From an uncultured Phycisphaeraceae bacterium (lineage in GTDB: Bacteria > Planctomycetota > Phycisphaerae > UBA1845), in NCBI GenBank assembly GCA_964648365.1, contig CAZYLK010000001.1:762-64761 (forward strand): 64,000 nucleotides of DNA. Direction: 5' to 3'. Made by a program: the position numbers and the translations under genes. Positions within the stretch are counted from its first letter, which is position 1; each line of letters starts with the position of its first letter. Below, in pieces: positions 1,785 through 58,606 of this stretch. The notes under the pieces are model-generated. The model was not told the origin of the DNA. It made no database searches and was given only the letters and a program-made list of their open reading frames with translations.

Positions 1785-1820
1785 GTCAGAGTCCGTTGAC
1801 TGACGCTGGAAACTCTCGTT

Positions 1821-1903
1821 GTGGCACCGGTTGTCACCCGGTGACCTCGTGTGGCACCGGCCTTCGACCGATGCTGACCCCGGCATGAATGCCGGGGCTC
1901 TGA
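1821..1903. repeat. Hairpin repeat cluster: H1-type GTGGCACCGGTT.. (1821-1843, partial 1851-1860) plus H2 hairpin CCCCGGCATGAATGCCGGGG (1878-1897)
   Basis: Read directly. The same H1+H2 combination recurs at 7255-7299. Confidence 0.85.
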
Positions 1904-7254: not shown

Positions 7255-7299
7255 GTGGCACCGGTTTTCAACCGGTGGACCCCGGCATGAATGCCGGGG
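7255..7299. repeat. H1 hairpin (GTGGCACCGGTTTTCAACCGGTG, 7255-7277) + H2 hairpin (CCCCGGCATGAATGCCGGGG, 7280-7299)
   Basis: Read directly. It lies in the divergent region between the mutase gene and the PDZ-hydrolase gene. Confidence 0.9.
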
Positions 7300-8794: not shown

Positions 8795-8845
8795 GGGGGA
8801 AAGGGAGTGAGGGAGTAAGGGAGTGAGGGAGTCAGGGAAGAAGGG
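8795..8845. repeat. Family A octamer array (GGGAGTRA), solo copy just after a stop codon
   Basis: ggggggaaagggagtgagggagtaagggagtgagggagtcagggaagaaggg, a few nt after stop 8788-8790. Confidence 0.9.
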
Positions 8846-9643: not shown

Positions 9644-9675
9644 CATTCGTTATTCGCCATTCGCTATTCGCCATT
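9644..9675. repeat. Family B octamer array (GAATNNCG read on minus strand), 3 nt downstream of hypE stop
   Basis: The plus strand reads cattcgttattcgccattcgctattcgccatt. The minus sense reads aatggcgaatagcgaatggcgaataacgaatg. Confidence 0.9.
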
Positions 9676-10858: not shown

Positions 10859-10891
10859 AATTCGTTATTCGCTATTCGCTATTCGCCATTC
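10859..10891. repeat. Family B octamer array overlapping the 3' end of hypD
   Basis: aattcgttattcgctattcgctattcgccattc. The hypD C-terminus ...GRMANSE and its TAG stop (10872-10874) are encoded by the array. Confidence 0.9.
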
Positions 10892-12242: not shown

Positions 12243-12302
12243 GGGGAGTCAGAGAGAATAGGGAGTAAGGGAACAAGGGAGTAAGGGAGTAAGGGAAGAA
12301 GG
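12243..12302. repeat. Family A octamer array between hypF stop and hypC start
   Basis: ggggagtcagagagaatagggagtaagggaacaagggagtaagggagtaagggaagaagg. In the hyp (minus) sense it reads as TTACTCCC units ending 13 nt before the hypC ATG. Confidence 0.9.
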
Positions 12303-12585: not shown

Positions 12586-15336
12586 TCATCCCGATTGCAG
12601 GGCCACGTCCTTCGCTGCTACCGCCGCTGCAATGGCAAGCTGGCCCAGGCTCAGGCCGCCGTCGTTGGGGGGAACCTGGCGATGGCGGATGACGCGGAAT
12701 CCGTCGCGTTGAAGCCGCGCCGTCGCCCCTTCCAGCAGCAAAACGTTCATGAACACTCCCCCGCTGAGGGCCACCAGGCTAACGCCGGTCTGCGCACGCA
12801 GCCGCCCACACACGTCGACGATCAGTTCGACCAGCGTGGCGTGGAACCGGCGGGCGATCACGGCCGGGTCCACCGATGCCCGCACGGCGCACAGGACGTT
12901 GCGGATCAGCGGGCGGGTGTCGATGATCATAGGCGCGTCAGAATGATCAGGCTGTCGGTCCGCCGCCGCGGGCGTGACGGCGTACGCGTAGGCATCATCG
13001 GGCTGTTGTGCTACCGCCGATCCGCCATGTCCGCGGAGTGACACCGAGTTCGAGCCGGTGGAATCACGGGCTGGAAGCCCGTGCCACACCGCCTCGTTCG
13101 GGCTGCCGTTTAGCGGCGGTGTGGACGCCGCCCATTCCAATTCGATGGCGGCCTGTCCCTCATACGCGGCCGTCTGGCGAATGCCGGCCAGCGCCGCCAC
13201 GGCATCGAACAGGCGGCCCATGCTGGACGTAAGTGGTGCATTGATGCGCTGCCGGATCATCCGCTCGATCACGCTCAGCTTCTGTCGCGACACGTGCCGC
13301 TGGAGCGCCTCGCAAAAGCCGACCGCGTCGATCAGATGCGCGGCGGCCATGCGCCAGGGCTCATGGATCGCCTGCTCGCCGCCGGGCATGGGCACGTAGC
13401 GCAGATGCGCCGCGCGACGGAAGCTGGACAAATCGCCGACCAGAAACTCGCCGCCCCAGACCGCGCCGTCTAGGCCGTAGCCGGTTCCGTCGAAGATCAC
13501 CCCAATGGCCGTCTCGGTCGATCCGTTCTCCGCCAGGCAACTCGCGAGGTGGGCGTGATGGTGCTGCACGGCGAGCCGCCGCGGCGTGCGGTTTGCGAGC
13601 GTCGGTCCCTGCAAATCCGCGCGGGCACAAGCCCGCGGCTCGCTTGAATTGCCGGATTCGCATCGCTGCAGCGCGTATCGCGTGGTCGCGTAGTCCGGGT
13701 GCAGGTCGTGCACGAGCAGCGCCGGCTGAATGTCGAAGAACCGCTCGAAGTCGTCGATGGCCTGCGTGTAGGCTCGAAACGCAGAGAAGTCGTCCAGGTC
13801 GCCGCCGTGGTGGCTGAGCATCGCCTGATGGCCGGCGCCCAGCGCGAACGTCGCTTTTAACTGCCCGCCGACGGCCAGGATGGGGATGCGGCAGTCGCTC
13901 GGCAGCGACAGCGGCTGCGGCACGTACCCCCGCGAGCGCCGCAGGATCAGCGGCGCCCCGCCGGTGACGCGGACGATCGAGTCGTCGCAGCGGCGGTGGA
14001 TCGGCCGGTCGTGCGTCAGCAGCAGATCGGCCAGACCGGCGAAGCGTTGGCGGGCGTCGGAGTCCTCGTAGGCGATCGGCTCGTCGGACAGGTTTCCGCT
14101 GGTCATCACCAGCGGCGTGCCGTCCATCTCGGCCATGAGCAGATGGTGCAGCGGTGTATACGGCAGCATCACGCCCAGCAGCGGATTACCCGGCGCGACG
14201 GCATCGGCGATGGGGTATACAAGCGAGCCGCGGGCTTCAGCCCGCGCGGATTCCCGGCACGGAAAACCCGTCCCGTTCGCAATCGACACGCCCTTACGGA
14301 GCGCAACGTCGCCCACTGACGCCGACGCCAAATCCAGCCCCGGCCGCAGAATGCCGAGTGTGGTTGCTGGAACGAGTGGAGAGCCAAACGAGTCAGGTGA
14401 CGCGGAGTTTCGCCGAACGTCCGCGCGGGCTGAAGCCCGCGGCTCGCTTTCGCTCGTGAGTTCTTCTGCATGGCCGGATCGCCGCTTCAGCAGCACGATC
14501 GGTCGGCGCACATCCTCCAGCAGCCGCGCCTCATCGTACGACACCTCGCAGATCGCCTCGGCCGCGGCCAGATCGCGGACCATGATCGCGAACGGCTTTT
14601 CCTCGCGATGCTTGCGGCCGCGGAGCCTCTCAACGGCGGCTCCGTCCGACGCCAGGCAGGCGAGGTGATAGCCGCCCAGCCCTTTGATCGCCACGATGGC
14701 GCCGCGGCGCAGGGATTCGGCCGCGGCGCGCAGCGGGTCATCTGTGGCTGCCGCGGTACCGTCGGGGGTCTCAAGCGCCAGTCGCGGCCCGCACACCGGG
14801 CAGGCGGTCGGCTCGGCGTGAAAGCGGCGGTTGGCCGGATCCTCATATTCCCGGCGGCAGGCGTCGCACATGTCGAACCGCGACATCGTTGTCTGCGCGC
14901 GGTCGTAAGGGACGCCGGTGATGATCGTCAGCCGCGGTCCGCAATGGGTGCAATTCAAGAACGGGTAGCGATAGCGGCGGTCGGCCGGGTCGAAGAGTTC
15001 GGTCAGACATTCCGGGCACGTCGCCACGTCGGCCGGTACGGACACGCGCGACCCGCCGTCCGGTTCGCTGGCGACGATCTCAAATGCCCGGTCGTGTTGC
15101 GGCGGGCAGTCCTGCCACTCAACCCGGTCGATGCGGGCCAGCGGCGGGAGACGATCCGTCAACGCTTGTTGGAACCGGCTCAGGGTGGCGGCCGCGCCCT
15201 CGACTTGGATGAGTACGTGCGAGCCTTCGTTGCGCACGAAGCCGGTCAGGCCAAGCTGTGAGGCAACACGGTGGACGAAGGGGCGGAACCCGATCCCCTG
15301 CACCAGACCCGTGACTTTGGCACTTCGCCGGACCAT
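12586..15336 (-). CDS. hypF: Carbamoyltransferase HypF, enlarged by in-frame repeat-derived insertions
   Basis: Acylphosphatase N-terminus VTGLVQGIGFRPFV. Two zinc-finger pairs (CPECLTELFDP...CTHCGPR; CDACRREYEDP...CPVCGPR). YrdC-like and Kae1-like parts (GVMLPYTPLHHLL, VQHHHAHLAS). The start was set to ATG 15336. The product is 916 aa versus about 750 aa in E. coli HypF. Confidence 0.9.
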   Translation of the reverse strand: MVRRSAKVTGLVQGIGFRPFVHRVASQLGLTGFVRNEGSHVLIQVEGAAATLSRFQQALTDRLPPLARIDRVEWQDCPPQHDRAFEIVASEPDGGSRVSVPADVATCPECLTELFDPADRRYRYPFLNCTHCGPRLTIITGVPYDRAQTTMSRFDMCDACRREYEDPANRRFHAEPTACPVCGPRLALETPDGTAAATDDPLRAAAESLRRGAIVAIKGLGGYHLACLASDGAAVERLRGRKHREEKPFAIMVRDLAAAEAICEVSYDEARLLEDVRRPIVLLKRRSGHAEELTSESEPRASARADVRRNSASPDSFGSPLVPATTLGILRPGLDLASASVGDVALRKGVSIANGTGFPCRESARAEARGSLVYPIADAVAPGNPLLGVMLPYTPLHHLLMAEMDGTPLVMTSGNLSDEPIAYEDSDARQRFAGLADLLLTHDRPIHRRCDDSIVRVTGGAPLILRRSRGYVPQPLSLPSDCRIPILAVGGQLKATFALGAGHQAMLSHHGGDLDDFSAFRAYTQAIDDFERFFDIQPALLVHDLHPDYATTRYALQRCESGNSSEPRACARADLQGPTLANRTPRRLAVQHHHAHLASCLAENGSTETAIGVIFDGTGYGLDGAVWGGEFLVGDLSSFRRAAHLRYVPMPGGEQAIHEPWRMAAAHLIDAVGFCEALQRHVSRQKLSVIERMIRQRINAPLTSSMGRLFDAVAALAGIRQTAAYEGQAAIELEWAASTPPLNGSPNEAVWHGLPARDSTGSNSVSLRGHGGSAVAQQPDDAYAYAVTPAAADRQPDHSDAPMIIDTRPLIRNVLCAVRASVDPAVIARRFHATLVELIVDVCGRLRAQTGVSLVALSGGVFMNVLLLEGATARLQRDGFRVIRHRQVPPNDGGLSLGQLAIAAAVAAKDVALQSG
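13065..13087. repeat. H3-type hairpin (CACGGGCTGGAAGCCCGTGCCAC) inside hypF coding sequence
   Basis: Read directly. It shares the gaatcacggg...cccgtgccac frame with the intergenic copies at 15399-15421 and 15467-15489. Confidence 0.8.
13616..13641. repeat. H4-type hairpin (TCCGCGCGGGCACAAGCCCGCGGCTC) inside hypF coding sequence
   Basis: Read directly. It is translated as ...SSEPRACARAD... in HypF. Confidence 0.85.
14225..14445. repeat. MITE-like 221-bp segment bounded by inverted H4 hairpins (14225-14250 and 14420-14445) inside hypF
   Basis: gagccgcgggcttcagcccgcgcgga at the left end and its reverse complement tccgcgcgggctgaagcccgcggctc at the right end. The whole segment stays in frame in HypF. 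Confidence 0.8.
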
Positions 15337-15367
15337 CGCATCACAGTCCACCAGCAGGATGCCGGAG

Positions 15368-15489
15368 CACCGGTTGAAAACCGGTGCCACAAGAGAATCA
15401 CGGGCAAGATGCCCGTGCCACACGTGCCACACAGACGCCGGTTGCAAACCGGTGCCACAGGAGAATCACGGGCAAGATGCCCGTGCCAC
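15368..15489. repeat. Duplicated composite hairpin unit [H1 + H3] x2 between hypB stop and hypF start
   Basis: The four modules are caccggttgaaaaccggtgccac (15368-15390), cacgggcaagatgcccgtgccac (15399-15421), ccggttgcaaaccggtgccac (15438-15458) and cacgggcaagatgcccgtgccac (15467-15489). Confidence 0.9.
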
Positions 15490-33896: not shown

Positions 33897-33937
33897 CATT
33901 CGACATTCGCCATTCGCCATTCGCCATTCGCCATTCA
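33897..33937. repeat. Family B octamer array 2 nt downstream of rpoD stop
   Basis: The plus strand reads cattcgacattcgccattcgccattcgccattcgccattca. The minus sense reads GAATGGCG units. Confidence 0.9.
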
Positions 33938-39442: not shown

Positions 39443-40201
39443 ATGATTCTCGGCAAGTTCTGGCATGTGGTGATGGCGCAGATCAACAAACTGGCCAACA
39501 TTTTCTGGACGGCCGATCCCATCGCTCAGATGCAATACGAGTACGACCAGGCAGTCGCCCAGATGAAGGAAGGCCGCGAGGGATTAGAGCAGTACCGCGC
39601 CCTGGTGGAACGGGTCAGCCGTCAGGTCGCGACGACGAAGCGGCACGTCGCCAACCTGGAGGCCAAGGTCAAAGCCTACCTGCAAGCCGGCGATCGCGAG
39701 ACGGCCGCCAAGTTCGCGCTGGAACTTCAGAAGGCCCGGGCGGAACTCGTCGAGAACGAAGAGCAGCTCACGCTGCACGAGACGGCCTACAACAACAACC
39801 TGACCAAGATCAAGCACGCTACCGGCAAGCTGGCCAAGGTACGTGAGAAGATCCAGAAGTACGACGCCGAACTGAAGATGAGCAAGGCCGAGGGTGAGAT
39901 GGCCAAGCTGGCTCAGTCGTTCAACTTCGACGTGACGACGGACTTCGGCGCCATCGAATCGGTCATTCAGGACAAGATCAGCCTCAACCGGGCCAAGGCG
40001 CGGGTCGCATCGGATCTTTCCAGCGAAGGCATTGTGGACGTGCAGCGCGAGCAGGCGATGGAACAGGCCATGGCCGATCAGGCCCTGCGCGAGTTCGAGA
40101 TGGACCTCGGGCTGGTGACGCCGGAGACGTCGTCTGTTGCCGATGAGACAAAGCAGCTTGGACCGGCCGTGACCGAGGCGAATACGCAGACGCAGGGGTG
40201 A
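39443..40201 (+). CDS. pspA: PspA/IM30 (Vipp1) family protein
   Basis: 252 aa, MILGKFWHVVMAQINKLANIFWTADPIAQMQYEYDQAV... with long coiled coil typical of PspA/IM30. The start was set to ATG 39443. Confidence 0.85.
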   Translation: MILGKFWHVVMAQINKLANIFWTADPIAQMQYEYDQAVAQMKEGREGLEQYRALVERVSRQVATTKRHVANLEAKVKAYLQAGDRETAAKFALELQKARAELVENEEQLTLHETAYNNNLTKIKHATGKLAKVREKIQKYDAELKMSKAEGEMAKLAQSFNFDVTTDFGAIESVIQDKISLNRAKARVASDLSSEGIVDVQREQAMEQAMADQALREFEMDLGLVTPETSSVADETKQLGPAVTEANTQTQG

Positions 40202-40560
40202 GGAAGAAGGGAGTAAGGGAGTGAGGGAGTAAGGGAGTAAGGGAAGAGGAACGATGCAACATTGTTCTACATCGCGCGGTTCTGCCGGCTCGCGAATCGC
40301 TTCCCCATCGCACCTGAAACAGCGTGCGCGATCACGCGCCAGCGCCGAGCCGCGGGCTTCAGCCCGCGCGATCCCCCCGGAAGTGAAGCGGCTACGAATC
40401 GCGCACTGTGATTTAGAAGAAGGCACCTCGGAAAAAGGACTGAGTCGGATGCGGAAACGTCGGGATGTCAGATTCGACGTGCCATCCGCTCTTCCCTTAC
40501 TCCCTCACTCCCTTACTCCCTCACTCCCTTCTTCGGGAACTCCCTCACTCCCTCCTTCCG
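40201..40560. repeat. Intergenic repeat complex: family A array forward (about 40209-40250), H4 hairpin (40347-40371), family A array reverse complement (40490-40560)
   Basis: The forward array reads gggagtaagggagtgagggagtaagggagtaagggaag. The hairpin reads gagccgcgggcttcagcccgcgcga. The reverse array reads cttcccttactccctcactcccttactccctcactcccttcttcgggaactccctcactccctccttcc. Confidence 0.9.
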
Positions 40561-40571
40561 AGGAGTCCTAA

Positions 40572-42473: not shown

Positions 42474-42489
42474 TCTGGTGTGGCACCAT

Positions 42490-42512
42490 GTGGCACCGGT
42501 TTTCAACCGGTG
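42490..42512. repeat. H1 hairpin just downstream of AAA ATPase stop
   Basis: gtggcaccggttttcaaccggtg, preceded by a partial gtggcacc. Confidence 0.9.
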
Positions 42513-43472: not shown

Positions 43473-44279
43473 ATGAGGTCGGCGACCGGACAATCTCGAC
43501 AACTCGCACGGCTGTGTTCGCTGGGCGTCGTCTCGATCGCGGCGCTCATCATGTTCTTTCCAAGTTGCGACCGTGACTCGTCGTCATCGACCGGAGGTCG
43601 GTCCCCGTCGCGCCAGTCGGGCAAGCGCGTCAGCGCCGGCCCAATCGACCTGCCCCAGGCGGACCAGCGGCTGTGCACGGGTGTCGTGCTGCTGGTGGAC
43701 ACGTCGGGCAGCATGAACCAGAAGGTGCGCGATCGCGGCGGCGCGGAACAGCCCAAGCACGTGATCGCTCGAGCGGCGATCGACCGGATCGTGGCGTATA
43801 CCGATCAGTGGCAAACGCAGCATCCCGACCGCGTGCTGCACCTCGGCGTGCTCAATTTCAGCAGCTCCGCCCATACGGTCATGCCGCTGGCGGCGTTTGA
43901 CGCTGCCACGGCCGCGGAGGCCGCGACGCGCATACCGGCGCCGGGCGGAGGAACCGCCATCGGCTCAGCCCTGCAGGAAGGCTTCAAGGCGCTCTATGCC
44001 TCCGGCTGCGTGCGGAAGTACGTCGTCTGCATCACCGACGGCGAGAACACGTCCGGCCCGCCGCCCGACCGGGTCGCCCGCGCGCTGCACGGCCAGACGG
44101 AAGGCGACGTCGAGATCCACTTTGTTGCATTCGACACGTCGCCCGCTAAGTTCGCATTCCTGTCGAAGGTCAACGGCTACGTCGTCGAGGCGGCGGACGG
44201 GGCGCAGCTCGACGCGCGGCTGGCCGATATCTATGAGAAACGGATCCTGGCGGAGGCGATGACGCTCGAAAAGGAATAG
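43473..44279 (+). CDS. von Willebrand factor A (vWA) domain lipoprotein
   Basis: RBS AGGAGGTG. Lipobox-like MFFPSC. MIDAS motif LVDTSGSM. GGGTAIGSAL and ITDGENTSG segments. Confidence 0.85.
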   Translation: MRSATGQSRQLARLCSLGVVSIAALIMFFPSCDRDSSSSTGGRSPSRQSGKRVSAGPIDLPQADQRLCTGVVLLVDTSGSMNQKVRDRGGAEQPKHVIARAAIDRIVAYTDQWQTQHPDRVLHLGVLNFSSSAHTVMPLAAFDAATAAEAATRIPAPGGGTAIGSALQEGFKALYASGCVRKYVVCITDGENTSGPPPDRVARALHGQTEGDVEIHFVAFDTSPAKFAFLSKVNGYVVEAADGAQLDARLADIYEKRILAEAMTLEKE

Positions 44280-44563
44280 CGAATGTCGAATAGCGAATAA
44301 CGAATGAAGCTCGCGCCGGTGCAGCGATCCTTCAGAACGGGGAGCGTAAACGACCGGCTGCGGAGGAATGTCGAATGTCGAATGAAGAGCAAATCGGAGC
44401 GGAGCGGCGCTATCCGGGCCGGAGCCGGAGACCACTGACAGAGGAAATGGGGATCGAGAATGGAGCCGTCTGACGCTGGAGCAGCATGTTCGTCTTCTCT
44501 GCATTCGACATTCGACATTCGCCATTCGACATTGAACCTTAGCCATTCGCCATTCGACATTCC
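44275..44563. repeat. Family B octamer arrays: forward 44275-44309 and 44366-44387, reverse complement 44502-44562
   Basis: The forward arrays read aatagcgaatgtcgaatagcgaataacgaatgaag and gaatgtcgaatgtcgaatgaag. The reverse array reads cattcgacattcgacattcgccattcgacatt..agccattcgccattcgacattcc. The vWA stop TAG (44277-44279) lies in the first unit. Confidence 0.9.
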
Positions 44564-46385: not shown

Positions 46386-46576
46386 GTGGCACCGGTTCCG
46401 GTGTGGCACCGGTTTCCAACCGGTGAGTCCGGTGTGGCACCGGTTTGCAACCGGTGAGTCTGATGTGGCACCGGTTTGCAACCGGTGGATCACCTTCCGG
46501 GGTCTGATGCAGGGTTACGCGCACTGGTTGCAAACCAGTGCCACAATTGAAGACACCGGTTGAAAACCGGTGCCAC
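46386..46576. repeat. H1 hairpin array (one partial and three full forward copies, two reverse copies) between SBP gene and permease gene
   Basis: Forward copies gtggcaccggtttSCaaccggtg lie at 46403, 46434 and 46465 with a 31-bp period. Reverse copies are cactggttgcaaaccagtgccac at 46522 and caccggttgaaaaccggtgccac at 46554. Confidence 0.9.
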
Positions 46577-46608
46577 ATAAGAGGGTGCATCGCAGCACTC
46601 GGACGGAC

Positions 46609-48616: not shown

Positions 48617-49504
48617 ATGCGCCGCCCGGCCGGAAAACTCGGCACCTATCTGAAGGCAGCGTTCACCCACCACTGGAACCTGCTGGCCTTTTTCGGTGCG
48701 CTGGGTTTTTCCCTGCTCAGCGGCATGCCGGACGTGCTGATCCCTCTGGTGGTGGCCGGCGAGATGGTCTATGTGGGCGGGCTGGCCGCGCATCCGAAGT
48801 TCCAGGCCTACATCGACGCCCAGGCGGCCAAGGCGGTCCGGCAGGACGGCTCGTCCCGCTCGCAGCAGATGCTCAATACCATGCTGCGCCGGCTCCCGCC
48901 GCGCACGATTGACCGGTTCGAGACGCTGCGCAACCGCTGCCTGGAACTGCGACAACTCGCCCTGGAACTGAAAGACCCCGGCCACACCGGCGGCGCGCGC
49001 CCGCTCGACGACATGCAGATGTCCGGCCTGGACCGGCTGCTGTGGATCTACCTGCGGTTGCTGTTTACCGAGCATTCGCTGGAGCGCTTCCAGGAGCGCA
49101 CCCACCCGTCGCAGGTCGAAGCGGACATCGAGGCGCTGGAGGCCCAGCTTTCCGACAGCGCGTCGATCGCCGACGACATTCAGCGGCAGAAGGTTCAGCG
49201 CACCCTTCAGGACAACCTCCAGACCTGCCGCGACCGGCTCGCCAACCTGCAGAAAGCCCGTGACAACCTCACGGTGGTCAAGCTCGAACTCGACCGGCTG
49301 GAAAACAAAATCCGCGCCTTAAGCGAACTGCCCCTCAACCGCCAGGAGCCCGACTACATCACTGCCCAGGTGGACGCGGTGGCATCGAGCATGGTGCAGA
49401 CCGAGCAGACGATGAACGAACTGCAATTCGCCACCGGCCTGGAAACGGCCGACGAAGCCGTGCCGCCGCTGATGAGCCGGCCGGTGGCGATGATGCAGGA
49501 ATAG
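48617..49504 (+). CDS. Hypothetical membrane protein with two N-terminal TM helices and long coiled coil
   Basis: 295-aa ORF 6 nt after the ABC ATPase gene. It has WNLLAFFGALGFSLLSGMPDVLIPLVVAGEMVYVGGL followed by Q/L/E-rich heptads. Confidence 0.6.
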   Translation: MRRPAGKLGTYLKAAFTHHWNLLAFFGALGFSLLSGMPDVLIPLVVAGEMVYVGGLAAHPKFQAYIDAQAAKAVRQDGSSRSQQMLNTMLRRLPPRTIDRFETLRNRCLELRQLALELKDPGHTGGARPLDDMQMSGLDRLLWIYLRLLFTEHSLERFQERTHPSQVEADIEALEAQLSDSASIADDIQRQKVQRTLQDNLQTCRDRLANLQKARDNLTVVKLELDRLENKIRALSELPLNRQEPDYITAQVDAVASSMVQTEQTMNELQFATGLETADEAVPPLMSRPVAMMQE

Positions 49505-49534
49505 CGAATAGCGAATGGCGAATAACGAATGAAG
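49500..49534. repeat. Family B octamer array spanning a stop codon and the argH start codon
   Basis: aatagcgaatagcgaatggcgaataacgaatgaag. The TAG at 49502-49504 ends the upstream gene, and the ATG at 49529-49531 (unit GAATGAAG) starts argH. Confidence 0.9.
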
Positions 49535-50890
49535 AAAGGCGATTCCCAACCCACTCCGTCGCGCCTCTGGGACAAGGGCGACGCGCTCGATCGGTTGATC
49601 CATGCATTTACCGTCGGTGACGATCCGCAGGTGGACCTTCACCTGGTGTACTGGGACTGCCTCGGCTCGGCCGCACATGCGCGGACGCTGGAGAAGGCCG
49701 GCGTGCTCACGAGCGAGGAGTGCGCCGGGCTGATCGCCGGGCTTGCCGAAATCGCACGGCTTGCGTCGGAGGGCCGATTCGAGATTCCGCTCGAACTGGA
49801 AGATTGTCACACGGCCATCGAGGCGCACCTCACGACAACCGCAGGCGAGGCGGGGCAGAAGATTCACACGGGGCGCTCGCGCAACGACCAGGTCGCGACC
49901 GCGATGCGGCTCTACATGCGCCATCACGCGCTGCGGTGGATGGAACTGCTCGACCGGTTTGCGTGTGCCTGCCTGGAGCGGGCGCGGCGCGACGGCGACG
50001 TGCCGATGCCGGGGTATACGCATCTGCAACCGGCGATGCCGTCGAGCGTCGGGTTGTGGCTGGCGGCGTGGGCAGAGGCTGCCGTCGAGCACATGGCATC
50101 CGGGCTGGATCTGCTCCATCGCCTCGACCGCTGCCCGCTGGGGACCGGGGCCGGCTTCGGGATATCGCTGCCGCTGGATCGCCAATGGACGGCGGAGTTG
50201 CTCGGCTTTTCGAAGATTCAGCGCAATCCGATCGACGTGCAAAACAGCCGCGGGCGGTTCGAGACGTATTTCCTGCGCGTTGGCGTGGACGTTGCGGGAA
50301 TGCTAGAGAAGCTGGCCGTGGATCTGGTGCTGTTTGCGACGCGCGAGTTCGGTTTCGTCAAGCTGCCGGTCGAGATGACCACCGGTTCGTCCATCATGCC
50401 GCAGAAGCGCAATCCGGACGTGGTGGAACTGGTCCGCGGCCACGCGGGCGTGGTTCGCGGGCGGCTGGCGCAGCTCGAATGGGTCTGCGCGAAGTTGCCG
50501 TCGAGCTATCACCGCGACCTGCAATTGACCAAGGCGCCGGTCGTGGCTGGGGTGCAAGACGTGGATGCCATGCTGACCGTCATGACGCGCGTCGTGGACG
50601 GCCTCGCTTTTGACGCACAGCGGCTGCGTGCCGCGATGTCCGACGAACTGTACGCGGCAGATGCGGCCTACGCCCTGGTGCGCCAGGGCGTGCCGTTTCG
50701 CGAGGCGTATCGCCGCGTCGGCGCCGACATCGCTGGTGGCGCGTTTTCGGCCCCGGATGGGGCGGGCCATTCAGCCGGAAGCGTTCAGCCGCAGGCGCTG
50801 GGAGATCTCAACGAAGAACGCGCACGGCTGCTGGCCGCCGCGGAGGCGTTCCGCGGGCGGGAGCGGACGTGCAGTGCGTTGTTGAAATAG
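49529..50890 (+). CDS. argH: Argininosuccinate lyase
   Basis: Fumarate-lyase signature TGSSIMPQKRNPDVVEL and an N-terminus LWDKG...FTVGDD typical of ArgH. Confidence 0.92.
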   Translation: MKKGDSQPTPSRLWDKGDALDRLIHAFTVGDDPQVDLHLVYWDCLGSAAHARTLEKAGVLTSEECAGLIAGLAEIARLASEGRFEIPLELEDCHTAIEAHLTTTAGEAGQKIHTGRSRNDQVATAMRLYMRHHALRWMELLDRFACACLERARRDGDVPMPGYTHLQPAMPSSVGLWLAAWAEAAVEHMASGLDLLHRLDRCPLGTGAGFGISLPLDRQWTAELLGFSKIQRNPIDVQNSRGRFETYFLRVGVDVAGMLEKLAVDLVLFATREFGFVKLPVEMTTGSSIMPQKRNPDVVELVRGHAGVVRGRLAQLEWVCAKLPSSYHRDLQLTKAPVVAGVQDVDAMLTVMTRVVDGLAFDAQRLRAAMSDELYAADAAYALVRQGVPFREAYRRVGADIAGGAFSAPDGAGHSAGSVQPQALGDLNEERARLLAAAEAFRGRERTCSALLK

Positions 50891-51528: not shown

Positions 51529-54500
51529 ATGTCGGCAATAGCGCCCACGCCCCAACAGCGCCAGGCGATCGAAACCGCCGGGTGTGAAGTGATCGTTTCC
51601 GCGGCCGCGGGATCGGGCAAAACCTCCGTACTGGCCGGACGTTGCGCGTATCTGGTCTCCGAGGCGCCGGCGCCGTGGCGCTGTGATGCGGATGCACTGC
51701 TGGTGCTCACTTTTACCGAGGCCGCGGCGGCGCAGATGCGCTCGCGGATCGTGGATCGGCTGCGGGAGCGGGTTCGCCAGCGCCCGGAGGATGCACGGCT
51801 CCGACGGCAGTTGTCGCTGATCGACCTCGCAGAGATCGGCACGCTCCACGCGTTCTGCCTGTCGCTTGTGCGGCGCTATTTTTCGACACTGGGCGTCGAC
51901 CCGGACGTCCGCGTCCTGGATGCGGACGAGGCGGCGCTGATCGAGCGTGACGCCATGGACGGCTTGTTCGAGCGCCTCTACGCGCGTCAAGCCGTCGGTG
52001 TGACAGGCGCGTCGGGGGGGGGGAACGCGGGCGCCGACGCCGGCAGGGGGGTGGCGGACGTTCTGGCCGGTCGGTTTGTCGAGCTGGTTGAGGTCTACGG
52101 ACTGGGGCGCGACGCTGCGATCGCGGAGGCGGTGCTGCGCCTGAGTCGTTTTCTCGACAGCCTGCCCGACCCCGAGGGATGGCTGCACACACATGTCCAC
52201 GCCGCGGCTGCCAACCCCGCCGGCCTGGTGGATCGCAAACTGGCTCAACTTCGTGACGAGCTGGCGCGGCAACTCGAACATCTGCGGGCGCAGTGGGCGG
52301 CGATCGACGGGCAGGAGAGCCGATGCCGTCTGGTCAAAGATGCGCTGCGGGCGTACGGCGTCCAACTGAACGAATGGGCGGCGATGGCCGCCGCGCCCGC
52401 CGAAGGGGCCGATGCCGCCAGCGCCGGCGCCTGCCTGGATCGCCTGCGCGGCGCGATGGCGGCCTTCGAGTTCAAAAAACCGCACGGTGTCCGGCGCCGG
52501 CCGGGCGAAGAATTGCCGCCGCATGTGCGGTATGCGGTGGAGACGTTCGACGAGGTGCAGAAGGGCCTTTTCAGCGGACGGCTGATGAAAGCGTTCGGGC
52601 GGTTCAGCACGGCCGAGTGGATCGCGGGGGCGGGGGCCGTCGTGCCGCACGCCGCCGCGCTCGCGGACCTGGCGATCGAGTTTCGTGCGGAGTACCTGGC
52701 CCGCAAGCGGGCGCTGGGCGCGATCGACTTTTCCGATCTTGAGCGGCTGGCGTATACGCTGCTGTCGGCGGACGGAGAGGGCGGGGGCCAGGTCGCCGAG
52801 GAGCTTCGTGCTCGATTCGCGCACGTCTGCGTCGACGAGTTTCAGGACATCAACCCGCTGCAGGCGGCGATCATCCGTGCGGTGAGCCGGACCGGCGACG
52901 GGGCGAACCTCTTCGTCGTCGGCGATGTGAAGCAGAGCATCTATCGCTTCCGCCTCGCCGAGCCGGAGCTTTTTCTCGAGGCGTGGCGGCAGGGCCGCCA
53001 AACCGATCGAGGGGGGGCGATCCCGCTGCAGAGCAACTTCCGCAGCCGCAGCGAGGTGATCGGTTTTGCCAATCTGCTCTTCGAACAGTTGATGCGGCCG
53101 GGCGCGGGGGCGGTCGTGTACGATGATCACGCCCGGCTGGTCGCCGGCCGCGCCGACGCCGCTGCGCCGCCGCCGCAACTCGTCGAACTCCACCTGCTGG
53201 CTCGACGTCTGGACGCTGCGCCCGGCTCGGAAAATGCGGACGAATCGGGCGAGCACGCCGTCGACTCGCCCCCCCCCGACGGCGACGACGCGGTTCGCGC
53301 CTTTGATCCCACCGACCCGGCCGAGTGGAACCCGATCGAGCGCGAGGCGTTCCTGATCGGCCGCCGCATCGGGCAACTGATGACCGACGGATCCGTGACG
53401 CCCGATGGAAAGCGCCTCCAGTATCGCGACATCGCGATCCTGCTGCGGTCGACGAAGGTGAACGCCGCACAGGTCGCGGCCATGCTGACGTCGATGGGCA
53501 TCCCCGTCCACAGCGACGCCGCCGTGCCCTTCCTGTCGTCGCAGGAAGTTCGCGAGATGCTCGATGCACTGCGCGTGCTCGACAACCCGCGTCAGGACAT
53601 TCCCCTGGCCGGGGTCATGCGAACCGGCGTCCTGGGCGAGTCGTTTACGGAAGACGAACTCGTTGAGATTCGCGCGATGGATCGTTCCGTGGCGTTCCAC
53701 CAGGCGGTGCATCGATTCGGGCAGTCGGGTCCGGCCGGTGCGACGCAGCGGAAGCTGTCCCGCCTGCTGGCGACGATTGATCAGTATCGGCACGAGGCCG
53801 GCACGCGCCCGCTGGCCGACGTCGTCTGGGACATCTACGACCGCGGCGGCTATCTGGCGCACGTCGGCGGGTTGCCGCGCGGGCTTCATCGCCGTGCCAA
53901 CCTGATTCACCTGCACGAGCGCGCCCGCCGGTTCGGTACGTTCCGCCGGCAGGGGCTGCACTACTTCCTGCGTTACATCGAGCTGCTGGAATCGCGCGAC
54001 GCCGATCTGAGCGACTCCGCGCCGTCGCCCGGCGCGGAGGACGCGGTGCGGATCATGTCCATCCACATGGCCAAGGGTCTGGAGTTTCCCGTCGTGTTCC
54101 TGGCGGGCACCGGAACGCGGTTCAACATGCAGGACAGCCGCGGCATGATCCTGTTCAGCCGCCGGAGCGGCATCGGTCTGCGCGTCGTCGATCGAGACAA
54201 GTACGTTCACTATCCGGGGCTGGCGCATTCACTGGTCGTCGATGAGGTCGAGCGGGACGCCCGCGAAGAAGAGCTGCGCGTGATGTACGTCGCGCTCACT
54301 CGGGCGCGCGAGAAGCTCATCGTCATCGGAACGCCCGTCTGCAAGGACATCGATGAGTGGGTCGCCGCCGCCCGGGGTACGGGTCGGCCGCCCACGCTCT
54401 ACGCCGTGGACCGCGCCGGCTGCATGTTGGACTGGATCGTGCCGTGCATGGCGTCCGCGCCGGTCGGCGATGTCGCGTGGCCGGAGGGCGCCTCTTCAAC

Positions 54501-55497
54501 GACAGTCGGGGCGCAGCCGGCGCGGGTGGGCCGCCTCGCCAATGTCCATGTTCATTCCGCCGACGATATGCGGGCCTGGCGCGTCGAGTCCAATGGGAAC
54601 CGGCAGGAGGAGGCCGTCCGCCATGCCGCGGCGGTGCTGGCGCCGCTGCCGCCGGCCGAACCTGTTGCGGCCGCCCATCCGCGCGTCGAAGCCGTGGTGC
54701 GCCGACTGGACGCGCGCTACCCGTCGCTTGCAGTCACGTCCGTCCGTGCCGTCGTCGGCGCCAGCGAGGTCAAGCGTACGGCCGACGCCAGTGGAGATTC
54801 CGAGCGAGCCGCGGGCCTCAGCCCGCGCGGACGCACCGGTCAGACATCGGCGGCGGCGGCGCAGGCGCCCGCAACGAAGCAGACCGCCCAGTCGGCGGGG
54901 CAGGCCCGGCCCGATCTGGAGGCGCCTTCCGCGCGCGCGGTTGCATCGGCTCGCGGGGAAGACGCCCGCCGTCGTGGCATCCTGACGCATCTCGTCTTGC
55001 AGCACGTGGATCTGTCCGCGGCGCGCGATCGCCCCGGCGTGGAGGCCGAAGTCGCCCGACTGGTTGACGCCGGGACGCTAGCGGCGGAGGACGTGGAGCA
55101 CGTCGATGCAGACGGCATCGGCTGGTTTGTGACCACCGACCTGGCCGATCGCCTGCGCAGCGCGGGCGGCGCCTATCGCCGCGAGTTCCCCTACATCGCC
55201 CGCGAGGATCCGGCGTTCTTCGACCCGCAGGTGCGGGCGGAGGATGACGAGGATCAGGTGCTCGTGCGCGGCATTATCGACGGCGTCCTGGAATCGCCCG
55301 ACGGGGTGGCCGTGGTCGACTTCAAGACCGACCGGGTCGAACCGGGTGCTGTCGTGGAACGCGCTTTGCAATATCATGGGCAGATGGCGCTGTACGCGCG
55401 GGCGCTGGAGCGACTCCTGCGCAAACCGGTCGCGGCCGCCCACCTGGTGTTCCTGTCGCCCCGGGTGATTCACAGGATCGATGCGCCCGGTCGCTGA
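51529..55497 (+). CDS. UvrD/PcrA-family helicase with C-terminal PD-(D/E)xK nuclease (AddA-like)
   Basis: Walker A AAAGSGKTSVL, VDEFQDINPLQ, SIHMAKGLEFPVVF and VALTRAREKL motifs. The C-terminal nuclease motif is RGIIDGVL...VVDFKTD. No AddB-like gene is in the window. Confidence 0.85.
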   Translation: MSAIAPTPQQRQAIETAGCEVIVSAAAGSGKTSVLAGRCAYLVSEAPAPWRCDADALLVLTFTEAAAAQMRSRIVDRLRERVRQRPEDARLRRQLSLIDLAEIGTLHAFCLSLVRRYFSTLGVDPDVRVLDADEAALIERDAMDGLFERLYARQAVGVTGASGGGNAGADAGRGVADVLAGRFVELVEVYGLGRDAAIAEAVLRLSRFLDSLPDPEGWLHTHVHAAAANPAGLVDRKLAQLRDELARQLEHLRAQWAAIDGQESRCRLVKDALRAYGVQLNEWAAMAAAPAEGADAASAGACLDRLRGAMAAFEFKKPHGVRRRPGEELPPHVRYAVETFDEVQKGLFSGRLMKAFGRFSTAEWIAGAGAVVPHAAALADLAIEFRAEYLARKRALGAIDFSDLERLAYTLLSADGEGGGQVAEELRARFAHVCVDEFQDINPLQAAIIRAVSRTGDGANLFVVGDVKQSIYRFRLAEPELFLEAWRQGRQTDRGGAIPLQSNFRSRSEVIGFANLLFEQLMRPGAGAVVYDDHARLVAGRADAAAPPPQLVELHLLARRLDAAPGSENADESGEHAVDSPPPDGDDAVRAFDPTDPAEWNPIEREAFLIGRRIGQLMTDGSVTPDGKRLQYRDIAILLRSTKVNAAQVAAMLTSMGIPVHSDAAVPFLSSQEVREMLDALRVLDNPRQDIPLAGVMRTGVLGESFTEDELVEIRAMDRSVAFHQAVHRFGQSGPAGATQRKLSRLLATIDQYRHEAGTRPLADVVWDIYDRGGYLAHVGGLPRGLHRRANLIHLHERARRFGTFRRQGLHYFLRYIELLESRDADLSDSAPSPGAEDAVRIMSIHMAKGLEFPVVFLAGTGTRFNMQDSRGMILFSRRSGIGLRVVDRDKYVHYPGLAHSLVVDEVERDAREEELRVMYVALTRAREKLIVIGTPVCKDIDEWVAAARGTGRPPTLYAVDRAGCMLDWIVPCMASAPVGDVAWPEGASSTTVGAQPARVGRLANVHVHSADDMRAWRVESNGNRQEEAVRHAAAVLAPLPPAEPVAAAHPRVEAVVRRLDARYPSLAVTSVRAVVGASEVKRTADASGDSERAAGLSPRGRTGQTSAAAAQAPATKQTAQSAGQARPDLEAPSARAVASARGEDARRRGILTHLVLQHVDLSAARDRPGVEAEVARLVDAGTLAAEDVEHVDADGIGWFVTTDLADRLRSAGGAYRREFPYIAREDPAFFDPQVRAEDDEDQVLVRGIIDGVLESPDGVAVVDFKTDRVEPGAVVERALQYHGQMALYARALERLLRKPVAAAHLVFLSPRVIHRIDAPGR
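54806..54831. repeat. H4 hairpin inside the AddA-like coding sequence
   Basis: gagccgcgggcctcagcccgcgcgga, translated in frame as SERAAGLSPRGR. Confidence 0.85.
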
Positions 55498-55516
55498 CCG
55501 GGGGATGGAATGCTGT

Positions 55517-58500
55517 ATGCGAGTGCTTGGCGGCTACGACGCGCAACTGGATGCACGGGTGCGGGAACTCGGCCGTGAGATCTTCGAGCGGGCGGCCGAC
55601 GCGACCCCGCGGTTCGGGCAGCGCGCCTGGGCGCTGGAGAAGCTGACCTCCTGGGTGGACAGCGACCCGAAGCTCAAGGCGGCGGCCTTCGAGTTCGTGG
55701 CGACGCTGCCGTCGCTGCGGGATGACCATGACATCGCCCGCCACCTGGCGGAGTTCATGGCACAGCGCGAGGTTGATCTGCCGCTGCCGGCGCGGTGGGC
55801 GCTGGGGCTGGGTTCAGACCACCGGTTGCAAACCGGTGCCACATCGGATCACCGGTTGCAAACCGGTGCCACATCGGATCACCGGTTGCAAACCGGTGCC
55901 ACACCGGATCACCGGTTACAAACCGGTGCCACACCGGATCACCAACTGGAGACCGGTGCCACAGGGGACCACCGGTTGCAAACCGGTGCCACAGGTGACG
56001 GCAATGCGACGTTGCTCTCGTCGCTGATCGGCGTGATGGCCCGTCGCGGGGCGTCCGCGATGGCGGAGCGCTTCATCACCGGGCACGACGAGGCCAGCGT
56101 CACGGCGACCCTGGAGCGATTCCGCTCGCAGGGCATGACGTTCACGCTCGACGTGCTGGGCGAGTCTACGACCAGCGATGCCGTAGCGGAACGATATCTC
56201 AACACCTACCTCGAACTGATCGAGCACCTGTGCCCACGCGCGGCCACGTGGTCGAACGCGCCGACGATTGACCGGACCGATCGCGGACAGCAGCCGCGGG
56301 TCAACATTTCCATCAAGCTGACCGGCCTCGATCCGCACTTCGACCCCGTCGATCCGCAGCGTTCCATTGACGAAGTCTGCGCCCGCATCACGCCGCTCCT
56401 GCGCCGGTCGCGGGAACTCGGCGCGTTCGTCAACGTGGACATGGAGGCCTTCCGCTATCGCGACCTGACGCTCGACCTGTTTGAGCATCTGATGATGCGA
56501 CCGGAATTCCGGGATTGGGAAGATGTCGGCATCGTGGTTCAGGCCTACCTTGCGGACGGCGAGCGTGACCTGGCCCGTCTGCTCGACTGGGGTCGCAATC
56601 GCGGTTCGCGGTTCGCGGTGCGACTCGTCAAGGGCGCTTATTGGGACACAGAGGTCGCGCTGGCGGCGGAGGCGGGTCTGCCTCCGCCGGTGTGGACGCA
56701 GAAGTGGCAGTCCGACGCCTGCTACGAGCGCATGACGCGCGTCATGCTCGCCCATACGGATGTCATTCGACCGTGCTTCGCCAGCCACAACGTCCGCTCG
56801 CTGGCTCACGTGCTGGGCACGGCCGAGCGATACGGACTGACGCCGCGGTCGTATGAAGTCCAGATGCTCTACGGCATGGGCGACCCTCTCAAGGATGCGA
56901 TGGTTCGCATGGGCCAGTGCCTGCGCGTCTACTCGCCCTACGGCGACATGATCCGCGGCATGGCCTACCTGATCCGCCGGCTTATCGAGAACACGTCGAA
57001 CGACTCGTTCCTGAAGCAGGGCTTCACGCATCGTGCGGGCTACGACCGTCTGCTCGCCGATCCCGCGATCGCCGGGCCGGCGAGGAACGGGCGGGGCGGC
57101 AGCGGCAATGGCGCGGATTCAGGTGCGCCCGAGGCATCGACGCCCGGAGTCGCGCAATCCGACTTCGGCCGTCGCGAAACCCGCGACGCCATGACCGCCG
57201 CGCTGAAGCGCCGGGGCGACGTTCCGACGTTCATGCCCTACGTCGCCGGTCGGTTTATCACCGCGACGGCGACGGAGGATGCCGCGGATGCGTCGCGCCC
57301 GGGCGTCGCCATCGCCAGGATCGGTCTGGCCCGGCCGGCGGACGTGGACGATGCCGTCGCCGCGGCCCGAACCGCCGCTGCCGCGTGGTCTGCACGCAGC
57401 GATGCGGAGCGCCGGGAGGCGGTGGCAGCGCTGACGGAACGCATGATCACCCGGCGGATGGAACTGGCGGCGTGGCTGATCCGCGACGCTGGGATGACAT
57501 GGCGTGCGGCGGACATCGAAGTGGCGGCCGCGATCCGTGCCTGTCGCCGGTGGGGGGCGACCCTGCCTGCCGCGACTCGCCCGGGCGGCAGGGTCTGGGC
57601 AGCGTTACTGCCCTGGAACGCGCCGCTGTCGGTGGCTGCGGAAGTGCTGGCCTGCGGGTTGGCCGCCGGACGGGCCGTCATACTCAAGCCGGATCTGCGC
57701 GCCGCTTGCGCCGCCTGCGTGCTGGCGACGCTCGTCGACGAGTTGGAGCTGCCCGCGGGTCTTGCAGCGATTGTTGCCGGGCCTGATCCCGCTACGGCTG
57801 GACGCCTGACGCGGCATACCGGCGTCGACCGCCTGATTCGTATCGGCCCGCCCGATCCCGACCTGGACGCCGCATCCGGCGAGGGGGCCGGGCGTGCCTT
57901 CGGCCGGACGTTTGTGCCCGATTCGGTGGTTGTCGTCGGGCACACGGCCAATCTCGACGCAGCCGTGTGGGGTGCGGTCCAGTCGGCGTACGACTTCGCC
58001 GGGCAGTCGTTCTCCGCCGCCAAGCGGATTATCGTCGATGCGGCGGTCCACGACGCGTTCGTCGAGCGGCTGAAGGAGGCGGTCGAAAGCCTGATGATCG
58101 GGCCGGCCGATGCCCCGCTGACGCTGGTCGGGCCGATGATCGACGAGGCGGCGAGGGAGCGGTTTCGGCGATCCGTCGCAGCCGTGGCCTCGATCTCTCG
58201 GATCGTCGTCGATCGCACCGCTGCCGCTGACGCGGCGTCCGGCTGCGTCGGTCCACTGCTTCTGACGGGGGCGCAGCTCGCGCCCGCGGCGATCGGCCCC
58301 GTGGCCTGCGTCTACAGAGCCGCCAGTTTCGAGCAGGCGTTGCGGATGGCGAACGCACGCCCCGCACCCGCGGCGGCGGTCTACACCCGCACGCCGTCGC
58401 AGCTTCGCGCCGCTCGCATCGCCCTGGCGGAATCGGAGGTTACGATAAACACGCCGGTGGCTGGCGGAGGCTGGGGCGGCCTGGGGCAGTTGGTTCTATC

Positions 58501-58606
58501 GGAGTCCGGCGCCGAATCCGGCATCGTGGCTTCCGCGGCAGGCCCGGTGACGGCCGCAAGCGGGACAGGTCGGGATCGCGCCCCGACGGGCGCAGGCGCG
58601 CATTGA
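55517..58606 (+). CDS. putA: PutA-like fusion: proline dehydrogenase domain + aldehyde-dehydrogenase-like domain (the latter apparently lacking catalytic residues)
   Basis: N-terminal arm KAAAFEFVATLPSL. ProDH barrel motifs VRLVKGAYWD and RVYSPYGD...YLIRRLIENTSNDSFL. ALDH fold markers LLPWNAPL and VILKPD, but GQSFSA stands where GQxCxA is expected. Start alternatives are 55481, 55505 and 55517. Confidence 0.8.
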   Translation: MRVLGGYDAQLDARVRELGREIFERAADATPRFGQRAWALEKLTSWVDSDPKLKAAAFEFVATLPSLRDDHDIARHLAEFMAQREVDLPLPARWALGLGSDHRLQTGATSDHRLQTGATSDHRLQTGATPDHRLQTGATPDHQLETGATGDHRLQTGATGDGNATLLSSLIGVMARRGASAMAERFITGHDEASVTATLERFRSQGMTFTLDVLGESTTSDAVAERYLNTYLELIEHLCPRAATWSNAPTIDRTDRGQQPRVNISIKLTGLDPHFDPVDPQRSIDEVCARITPLLRRSRELGAFVNVDMEAFRYRDLTLDLFEHLMMRPEFRDWEDVGIVVQAYLADGERDLARLLDWGRNRGSRFAVRLVKGAYWDTEVALAAEAGLPPPVWTQKWQSDACYERMTRVMLAHTDVIRPCFASHNVRSLAHVLGTAERYGLTPRSYEVQMLYGMGDPLKDAMVRMGQCLRVYSPYGDMIRGMAYLIRRLIENTSNDSFLKQGFTHRAGYDRLLADPAIAGPARNGRGGSGNGADSGAPEASTPGVAQSDFGRRETRDAMTAALKRRGDVPTFMPYVAGRFITATATEDAADASRPGVAIARIGLARPADVDDAVAAARTAAAAWSARSDAERREAVAALTERMITRRMELAAWLIRDAGMTWRAADIEVAAAIRACRRWGATLPAATRPGGRVWAALLPWNAPLSVAAEVLACGLAAGRAVILKPDLRAACAACVLATLVDELELPAGLAAIVAGPDPATAGRLTRHTGVDRLIRIGPPDPDLDAASGEGAGRAFGRTFVPDSVVVVGHTANLDAAVWGAVQSAYDFAGQSFSAAKRIIVDAAVHDAFVERLKEAVESLMIGPADAPLTLVGPMIDEAARERFRRSVAAVASISRIVVDRTAAADAASGCVGPLLLTGAQLAPAAIGPVACVYRAASFEQALRMANARPAPAAAVYTRTPSQLRAARIALAESEVTINTPVAGGGWGGLGQLVLSESGAESGIVASAAGPVTAASGTGRDRAPTGAGAH
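55820..55993. repeat. Six tandem 30-bp copies of the H1 hairpin inside putA, in frame
   Basis: caccggttgcaaaccggtgccaca + 6 nt, with copies starting at 55820, 55850, 55880, 55910, 55940 (degenerate) and 55970. They are translated as DHRLQTGAT[SPG] x6. Confidence 0.95.

Follow-up and report, generated by a model that had tools for sequence, protein, structure and literature searches.

How does a run of short palindromes come to lie inside the reading frame of a conserved enzyme, and what becomes of the protein that carries it? The question is raised by a 64,000-nucleotide stretch of DNA from an uncultured Phycisphaeraceae bacterium (contig CAZYLK010000001.1 of assembly GCA_964648365.1; hereafter the window), in which a 24-nt hairpin element is repeated head to tail within a PutA-like open reading frame (ORF). 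The evidence supports an internal, in-frame insertion into a loop of PutA, and the repeated unit belongs, by its sequence, among the repetitive extragenic palindromic (REP) elements. In all likelihood, the array is a tolerated insertion of selfish DNA, a neutral or slightly deleterious passenger of the gene.

Tandem Repeats Finder reported an array at window positions 55820-55993 with a period of 30, 5.8 copies, 88% matches and a score of 271. Direct reading resolved it into six units, each made of the 24-nt element and a 6-nt spacer, with five intact hairpins and one decayed. The units start at 55820, 55850, 55880, 55910, 55940 and 55970, and with its spacer-like flanks, TCAGAC before and GGTGAC after, the array has a total length of 186 bp. 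Its parts are as follows:

55814..55999 (+): whole array, six 30-bp head-to-tail units with the trailing spacer-like GGTGAC (direct reading, Tandem Repeats Finder)
55820..55843 (+): REP copy 1, exact consensus, with an 8-bp stem CACCGGTT/AACCGGTG, loop GCA and tail CCACA (-10.9 kcal/mol as RNA)
55850..55873 (+): REP copy 2, exact; the entire 30-mer is the same as in copy 1
55880..55903 (+): REP copy 3, exact; spacer CCGGAT
55910..55933 (+): REP copy 4, a single synonymous change in the loop (TTG to TTA)
55940..55963 (+): REP copy 5, decayed (CACCAACTGGAGACCGGTGCCACA); five substitutions destroy the stem, and the peptide reads DHQLETGAT (-4.2 kcal/mol)
55970..55993 (+): REP copy 6, exact

Copies 1-3 and 6, four of the six units, are thus exact CACCGGTTGCAAACCGGTGCCACA. 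The spacers run in identical pairs (TCGGAT twice, CCGGAT twice), followed by GGGGAC and GGTGAC. As RNA, an intact unit folds into a perfect, G+C-rich 8-bp stem with a 3-nt loop, at the energy listed for copy 1. Translation of the array gives (S/P/G)DHRLQTGAT six times over, in frame with the host ORF. The initial annotation of this DNA, made by a model from the letters and a list of ORFs, had described six tandem 24-nt hairpins with an exact 30-bp period in frame inside a PutA-like ORF, adding 60 codons with the pattern DHRLQTGAT plus S, P or G. The repeat finder, the sequence and the translation all agree with this description, with copy 5 decayed and the insertion measured at 62 residues by alignment. 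Its further remark that the consensus is free of stop codons in all six frames is correct for the 24-mer, although in the context of the array the reverse frames do hold stops. The property is real but not special, because it is common at the G+C content of the window (66%), where 46.5% of all 24-mers share it.

Two other identities for the repeats were tried and rejected. CRISPR repeats are parted by unique spacers of about 26-72 bp, whereas the spacers here are 6 bp long and near-identical, and the array lies inside a conserved ORF. A sigma-54 promoter reading of TGGCACCGGTTTGCA has a GG-to-GC spacing one base short of the consensus, and it fails also in that the GC sits in the variable loop (TTTTCA and TTTCCA variants).

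The host ORF encodes a PutA-like protein in which Pfam places three domains in one frame:

55481..58606 (+): host ORF, PutA-like, 1041 aa (ORF list, Pfam, homologues)
55550..55834 (+): PutA_N (arm), residues 24-118, sharing its frame with the barrel (Pfam E 4.7e-23)
56102..57019 (+): Pro_dh barrel, residues 208-513, active-site motifs kept (Pfam E 1.6e-92)
57305..58462 (+): Aldedh, residues 609-994, fold kept, catalytic Cys and Glu motifs gone (Pfam E 1.1e-51)

Judged by the N-termini of homologues, the real start is probably the ATG at 55517 (MRVLGG...). We retrieved 120 PutA homologues and aligned the best 40 of them over the insertion segment. The closest come from metagenome-assembled genomes (MAGs) of Phycisphaerae/Planctomycetota, share 41-47% identity with the query and are mostly about 1003-1010 aa long. 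At the array, between 'GPGxxxxxR' and 'xxxGxxARxGAxxMAGRF', the query carries an insertion of 62 residues that is found in none of the 40 aligned homologues, and element-derived peptides occur in 0 of the 120. In the alignment with the solved PutA structure 5ur2, query residues 12-100 and 170-517 are matched, and 5ur2 spans the gap between them with about 4 residues of its own; the barrel matches both 5ur2 and 4nm9. Among columns that are at least 90% conserved in the homologues, the query agrees with a fraction of 0.81 in the arm and 0.82-0.89 in the barrel, and the PRODH half retains the YLIRRLxENTSN, VKGAYWD and SIKLT motifs. Because of the insertion alignment, the bridging by 5ur2 and the conservation of the arm, the arm does not read as a separate, decayed ORF, nor the start as lying downstream of the array. 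The claim of the initial annotation that the array is an internal insertion and not a mis-called start is therefore supported, as far as sequence comparison goes. Its statement that genuine PutA flanks the array is true of the arm and the PRODH half, but not of the ALDH half, which lacks the catalytic Cys and the Glu motif.

An AlphaFold2 model built on 78 sequences (overall pLDDT 82, pTM 0.85) places the insert in an unstructured loop. Residues 115-171 have a pLDDT of 26-37 and no secondary structure, and lie between helix 102-107 and helix 173-198. The insert is accordingly predicted as a disordered loop running from the last helix of the arm to the helix that leads into the PRODH barrel. 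The PutA protein would presumably be made with the insert included.

What, then, is the repeated element, and where does it come from? With up to 3 mismatches allowed, the window contains 15 copies of the 24-mer (family A below), where shuffled sequence would be expected to give 0, and the exact 24-mer was found in more than 100 stretches of Planctomycetota/Phycisphaerae genomes among the matches listed. Though the hairpin core itself is palindromic, 161 of the 163 perfect cores have a CCAC(A) tail on one side only; about 100 of these were found with the tail in the search pattern, leaving roughly 60 unbiased. This tag reads GTGG/CCAC, while the tags of the described super-families are GTAG or CGTC. 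In a Phycisphaeraceae MAG (L067), copies at 2173-2195 (+), 1649-1671 (-) and 1577-1599 (-) abut a single ORF in inverted orientation. The ORF passes NCBIfam NF047646, the model for REP-associated tyrosine transposases (RAYTs), with 83 bits against a cut-off of 80 (E 1.9e-23), and also matches E. coli TnpA-REP (PDB 4er8). Its homologues number more than 1400 and are mostly free-standing proteins of 150-200 aa annotated as RayT. Several of five longer-than-usual RAYT ORFs that we inspected begin with REP-derived GTG(F/V)(Q/S)PV, which is followed by the RRNLPHW motif. Two further, weaker RAYT-like matches were discarded: one (L092) belongs to a different, classic GTAG-tagged REP and has a family-A copy nearby only incidentally, and the other (L077) has no family-A copy nearby. 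Because the element is a short palindrome with dispersed copies, a one-sided tag and inverted copies flanking the L067 RAYT, its sequence fits the structural and genetic definition of a REP, with a GTGG tag in place of GTAG or CGTC. The label "REP-like" given to it initially can be strengthened to REP by the inverted copies around that ORF.

Besides single copies and inverted pairs, the family typically forms head-to-tail arrays, which are common and mostly non-coding. In other genomes they have periods of 26-45 and 72 bp, and a scan of metagenomes for neighbouring pairs of copies, the gap left variable, gave 28 further arrays with periods of 26-33. None of these 28 was convincing as coding sequence, since the frames that span them look like out-of-frame junk. 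Among the arrays inspected, one lies upstream of a ubiD-like gene (L045) and another contains stops (L027), and both are non-coding. A second coding array emerged from an exhaustive HMMER protein search with the putA insert, which returned 161 matches. It is carried by P0121, a SpoU/TrmH-like methylase of 396 aa with 13 x (G/D)DRLETGATR between its substrate-binding and catalytic domains. The underlying DNA (L101 3353-3735; GCA_016235815.1, JACRIM010000041.1) holds 12.8 copies of the same REP family. The two coding arrays, in putA and in the TrmH-like gene, both have the exact 30-bp period and use an identical frame. P0121 was the only real enzyme among the HMMER matches; nearly all the others were either unrelated proteins with decapeptide repeats or short, spurious ORFs that cover intergenic arrays, and a word-indexed protein search with the 66-aa insert gave no candidate.

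Copies inside genes extend beyond arrays. Related genomes, 733 kb in all, gave 167 oriented copies, of which about 7 fall in ORFs with coding signal on both sides. The purH genes of L002 (4325-6055 (-)) and L067 (766-3090 (-)) carry the element at the same site. In L067, purH contains a complete REP-RAYT-REP in frame in one loop, with no stop codon and an insert of about 240 aa, and the purH of L002, another MAG, has only REP remnants at that site (LWHRFATGE...KQTGAT). A gatB gene (L046 6613-7998 (-)) has been entered in frame at two sites, once by a lone HRLQTGAT copy and once by the inverted doublet WHRFATGE...HRLETGAT, and a BadF/BcrA-type activase fusion (L071 2-3181 (+)) has one copy in an inter-domain linker. 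The purH, gatB and activase-like hosts keep intact Pfam domains on either side of the element, which lies between domains or in a loop. All forward-oriented intragenic copies, six separate insertions, use the HRLQTGAT frame. P0121 was left out of the frame count, as it had been found by searching with the peptide of that very frame; for the other five insertions, a small sample, such agreement has a chance probability of about 0.01. With a different hairpin, a RAYT flanked by direct repeats lies in frame in a recG-like helicase fragment on a 1-kb JGI contig (L130). Further along recG comes a TAA stop, so that the copy could be a pseudogene or could contain a sequencing error.

The loop of PutA that received the array has been a target more than once. 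Of 77 homologues, 72 have 26 residues in the segment corresponding to query P101-G190; in the other five it is expanded, and two of these longer loops hold other in-frame palindromic repeats. In P0095 (L131, at about 1790-1870), these are a hairpin close to a second hairpin family of the window (family C) and a C8/G8 hairpin, both in frame. L131 is syntenic with the window, with an addA-like gene upstream of putA. In P0094 (L132 1793-1999), a 36-bp unit that contains the hairpin GCAAAGA-GAA-TCTTTGC is repeated 5.8 times in the loop. Three lineages have thus gained unrelated palindromic repeats in the same loop of PutA, each keeping the frame, and the loop is permissive.

Together, these observations are best explained by the insertion and tolerance of a selfish repeat, one of a REP family native to Planctomycetota/Phycisphaerae genomes, and we consider it very probable that the array is a passenger of this kind. 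A 30-bp unit would have landed where the DNA encodes a surface loop of PutA, the one that joins the final helix of the arm to the long helix leading into the PRODH barrel. Its six copies may either have been inserted as a cluster or have been amplified later by slippage or unequal recombination; the identical spacer pairs would fit stepwise local duplication. The ORF would stay open because the period is a multiple of three and the HRLQTGAT frame is stop-free, and PutA would gain a hydrophilic loop of about 60 residues. More generally, REP units and clusters would insert or amplify widely, and selection would act as a filter on a prolific selfish repeat, such that the survivors inside genes are only those with a length of 3n, free of stops and in permissive loops. 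The insertion would then have survived because of where and how it landed, and not because of a function. Such a filter would account for the 30-bp period of both coding arrays, where periods elsewhere are variable. It would also explain why the insertions sit in loops and linkers, why their hosts are unrelated and why disorder is predicted.

The ALDH half of putA bears on an alternative, in which the gene is becoming a pseudogene and the array is one further lesion. A Cys and a Glu are the established catalytic residues of ALDH. Here GQSFS replaces GQKCS, the EMGGKN segment that carries the glutamate is deleted, and RIGP replaces FTGS. Of the alignment columns with at least 90% conservation in the homologues, this half also matches only 26-56%, and the C-terminal 50 residues are modelled with low confidence, all of which would suit decay. 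Because of the established roles of the lost residues, the ALDH domain is probably inactive, a scaffold attached to an intact PRODH. However, the ORF remains open over 1041 codons with a coding G+C pattern (G+C at third codon positions, GC3, of 0.81), the arm and the PRODH half hold 81-89% of highly conserved positions, key motifs included, and similar insertions in hypF, gatB, purH and trmH-like genes occur beside intact domains. Moreover, the ALDH fold is still modelled at a pLDDT of about 90, which points to a long-lived PRODH with a retained inactive scaffold domain and not to random decay. The ALDH loss alone does not make putA a pseudogene, and we regard the decay of the gene as unlikely.

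A second alternative is that the array has a selected function, be it as a flexible linker that alters arm-barrel or oligomer contacts, as hairpins that slow ribosomes or stabilise the transcript, or as a DNA site for a REP-binding protein. Five of the six stems are perfect, the array region is more stable as RNA than 200 of 200 shuffles (z = -3.4), the six separate forward intragenic insertions share one frame, and the same PutA loop is expanded in other lineages, as a function might lead one to expect. However, the model predicts no order in the insert, none of the 120 homologues has it, and no intrinsic terminator-like or promoter-like site was found in the array. The inserts of the other lineages are unrelated in sequence, so that what the three lineages have in common is the site and not a function. 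The host proteins of the family are likewise unrelated to one another, which argues against a common function, and a published survey of intragenic REPs (PMC3733652) reasons in the same way. A selected function therefore appears very unlikely.

Mis-assembly of a short repeat as the source of the array, or of its number of copies, is highly improbable. The 30-mers of units 1 and 2 do not differ, nor do the 24-mers of units 1-3; the array is seen here in assembled sequence alone, and a short-read assembly could miscount these units by one or two. However, the units are told apart by four spacer types, a loop variant and a decayed copy, which an assembler would not invent, and the array spans only 186 bp. 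In the independent assembly of L101, a different gene contains 12.8 copies of this family with the same period and frame, and errors of whole units would leave the frame intact.

Several points nevertheless weigh against the view of the array as a tolerated passenger. Both the predicted translation across the array and the precise number of its copies are read from the assembly. No ortholog above 47% identity was found in the databases searched, and no empty site or copy-number variant was seen in them; with the closest PutA only 47% identical, the insertion cannot be dated and its copy number cannot be compared. With the ALDH catalytic residues lost, part of the gene is under a changed constraint, and the case for tolerance of the insert by a fully functional bifunctional enzyme is weaker for it. 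The five perfect hairpins fit a recent event, and also fit homogenisation or selection on the hairpin. Finally, tblastn found no RAYT in the 64-kb window, and the link between this REP and a RAYT depends on one clear REPtron in another genome.

The rest of the window shows the family in its more usual setting. Outside putA it has 10 copies, which lie between genes or just 5' of gene starts:

46402..46487 (-): three-copy intergenic head-to-tail array with a period of 31; unit plus spacer CCGGA near-identical to the putA unit
46522..46577 (+): two copies in opposite orientation to 46402-46487, upstream of a gene starting near 46609
15368..15459 (+): two copies (15368, 15436) in the gap from hypB to the real hypF start, with family-B hairpins CACGGGCAAGATGCCCGTGCCAC interspersed
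42489..42512 (-): single intergenic copy immediately after a stop codon
7254..7277 (-): single copy between divergent genes, beside a family-D hairpin CCCCGGCATGAATGCCGGGG
1820..1843 (-): diverged copy (3 mismatches) upstream of a minus-strand gene, beside a family-D hairpin

Gene context agrees with the initial placement of these copies outside genes (7255, 15368, 15438, 42490 and 46403-46576), and those at gene 5' ends, into some of which the mechanically longest ORFs extend, are presumably intergenic as well. The inverted cluster at 46402-46577 resembles a BIME/REPIN. The family-D hairpin CCCCGGCATGAATGCCGGGG is followed by CTCTGA at 1878-1897 and 7280-7299 and directly adjoins a family-A copy both times, an adjacency that suggests composite units. 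Short tandem runs of 7- and 8-nt units, of the CATTCGC/GAATAGC and GGGAGTAA/AGGGAGTG types and on either strand, occur at 571-606, 8802-8838, 9644-9675, 10860-10891, 12256-12302, 33897-33936, 40194-40251, 40493-40561, 44266-44306, 44502-44562 and 49499-49542, mostly in intergenic gaps and often just 5' of starts. Rfam at gathering thresholds gave no family, tRNA included, anywhere in the window.

Two other genes of the window carry hairpins of other families in frame. The hypF product (window 12589-15339 (-)) has 917 aa, compared with 761 aa in the solved HypF 3vth, and its in-frame insertions at query residues 289-377, 558-587 and 737-803 each carry palindromic elements:

14420-14445 (-) and 14225-14250 (+): family-C inverted pair GAGCCGCGGGCTTCAGCCCGCGCGGA in hypF, bounding an 86-aa insert that resembles a miniature inverted-repeat transposable element
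13616-13641: single family-C copy in hypF
13065-13087: family-B copy CACGGGCTGGAAGCCCGTGCCAC in hypF

The addA-like gene at 51529..55497, immediately upstream of putA, has a family-C hairpin at 54806-54831 (+) that is read in frame as ERAAGLSPRGR. It lies at about residue 1092, between the UvrD_C and PD-(D/E)XK nuclease domains. Counting the putA, hypF, addA-like, gatB, purH, activase-like and TrmH-like genes, all of which have an in-frame insertion with intact flanking domains, in-frame hairpin insertions are common in the source genome and its relatives.

Insertions of this general kind have been described in other bacteria. Di Nocera, De Gregorio and Rocco (2013, BMC Genomics 14:522; PMC3733652) report that GTAG/CGTC REPs are mostly extragenic with a minority wholly within known genes, that they occur as singletons, as head-head, tail-tail or head-tail dimers and as clusters, and that GTAG families are tied to RAYT genes (REPtrons). 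More than half of the intragenic REPs are given there as dimers or groups encoding 20-30 aa, with clusters encoding 43-82 aa in Thauera and R. conorii. DNA-repair helicases are named as frequent hosts, and the inserts are reasoned to sit in flexible linkers and to be probably neutral. The same source cites the Rickettsia palindromic elements (RPEs; Ogata and colleagues) as in-frame inserts in many unrelated genes whose proteins are likely functional. The elements studied here are like those GTAG/CGTC REPs in being tagged palindromes with the same arrangements, a RAYT link and a repair-helicase host (addA-like here). They differ in the GTGG tag, in their Phycisphaerae-like Planctomycetota hosts and in their pure head-to-tail arrays with an exact 30-bp period, of 6 copies in putA and 13 in L101. 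Recurrent hits on one enzyme loop in three lineages are not described in the portion of PMC3733652 used for this comparison.

Like the REP-BIME-REPIN systems of E. coli and Pseudomonas with their RAYTs, the family has a hairpin whose tag is unpaired, a RAYT between inverted copies, and inverted clusters. In contrast to those systems, it has a shorter (8 bp) perfect stem and a GTGG tag, and both long head-to-tail arrays and coding insertions are frequent. The RPEs are a functional analogue, likened here by description, as palindromic in-frame inserts in diverse genes. RPE inserts lie at surface-exposed positions. RPE-1, however, measures roughly 100-150 bp and inserts as a single unit, whereas the unit here is 24-30 bp, and RPEs inhabit a reduced intracellular genome, unlike that of the Planctomycetota host. 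No transposase is known to be linked to RPEs. The array also resembles intragenic tandem repeats and contingency loci in that tandem units within an ORF leave copy number open to slippage. Here, however, the unit is a palindrome dispersed over the genome and not a locus-specific repeat, and because its length is a multiple of three, a change in copy number would alter the length of the loop and would not switch the gene on or off, unlike in contingency loci. The putA array is thus a well-anchored example of a phenomenon already published for other bacteria and not a new category; what is new is the GTGG-tagged family, the host group at the level of a phylum and the pure head-to-tail arrays. 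The most unusual by-products of the analysis, the in-frame REPtron in purH and the recurrent targeting of the PutA loop, lie outside the window.

A bolder reading, which we hold to be rather doubtful, is that the REP/RAYT system of Planctomycetota may routinely live inside genes, and is not merely extragenic with occasional accidents. Arrays of up to 13 units may then serve as in-frame linkers in housekeeping enzymes, with a preferred frame, HRLQTGAT, that is Cys-free and hydrophilic. If true, this would amount to a non-splicing, intein-like persistence of a transposase and its miniature derivatives, sheltered in essential genes, and would provide a steady supply of new disordered linkers.

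With the array viewed as a tolerated passenger, the locus shows that REPs can join proteins as multi-unit, in-frame arrays and that one enzyme loop can be chosen repeatedly. For PutA, it marks the arm-to-barrel loop as freely expandable and flags a lineage whose ALDH domain appears catalytically dead. In annotation, such inserts are not to be taken for frameshifts, split genes or new domains. For the evolution of these elements, a GTGG-tagged REP family and its RAYT are documented in a poorly studied phylum, and the findings suggest that REP-rich genomes keep probing the loops of their proteins for tolerance to insertion.

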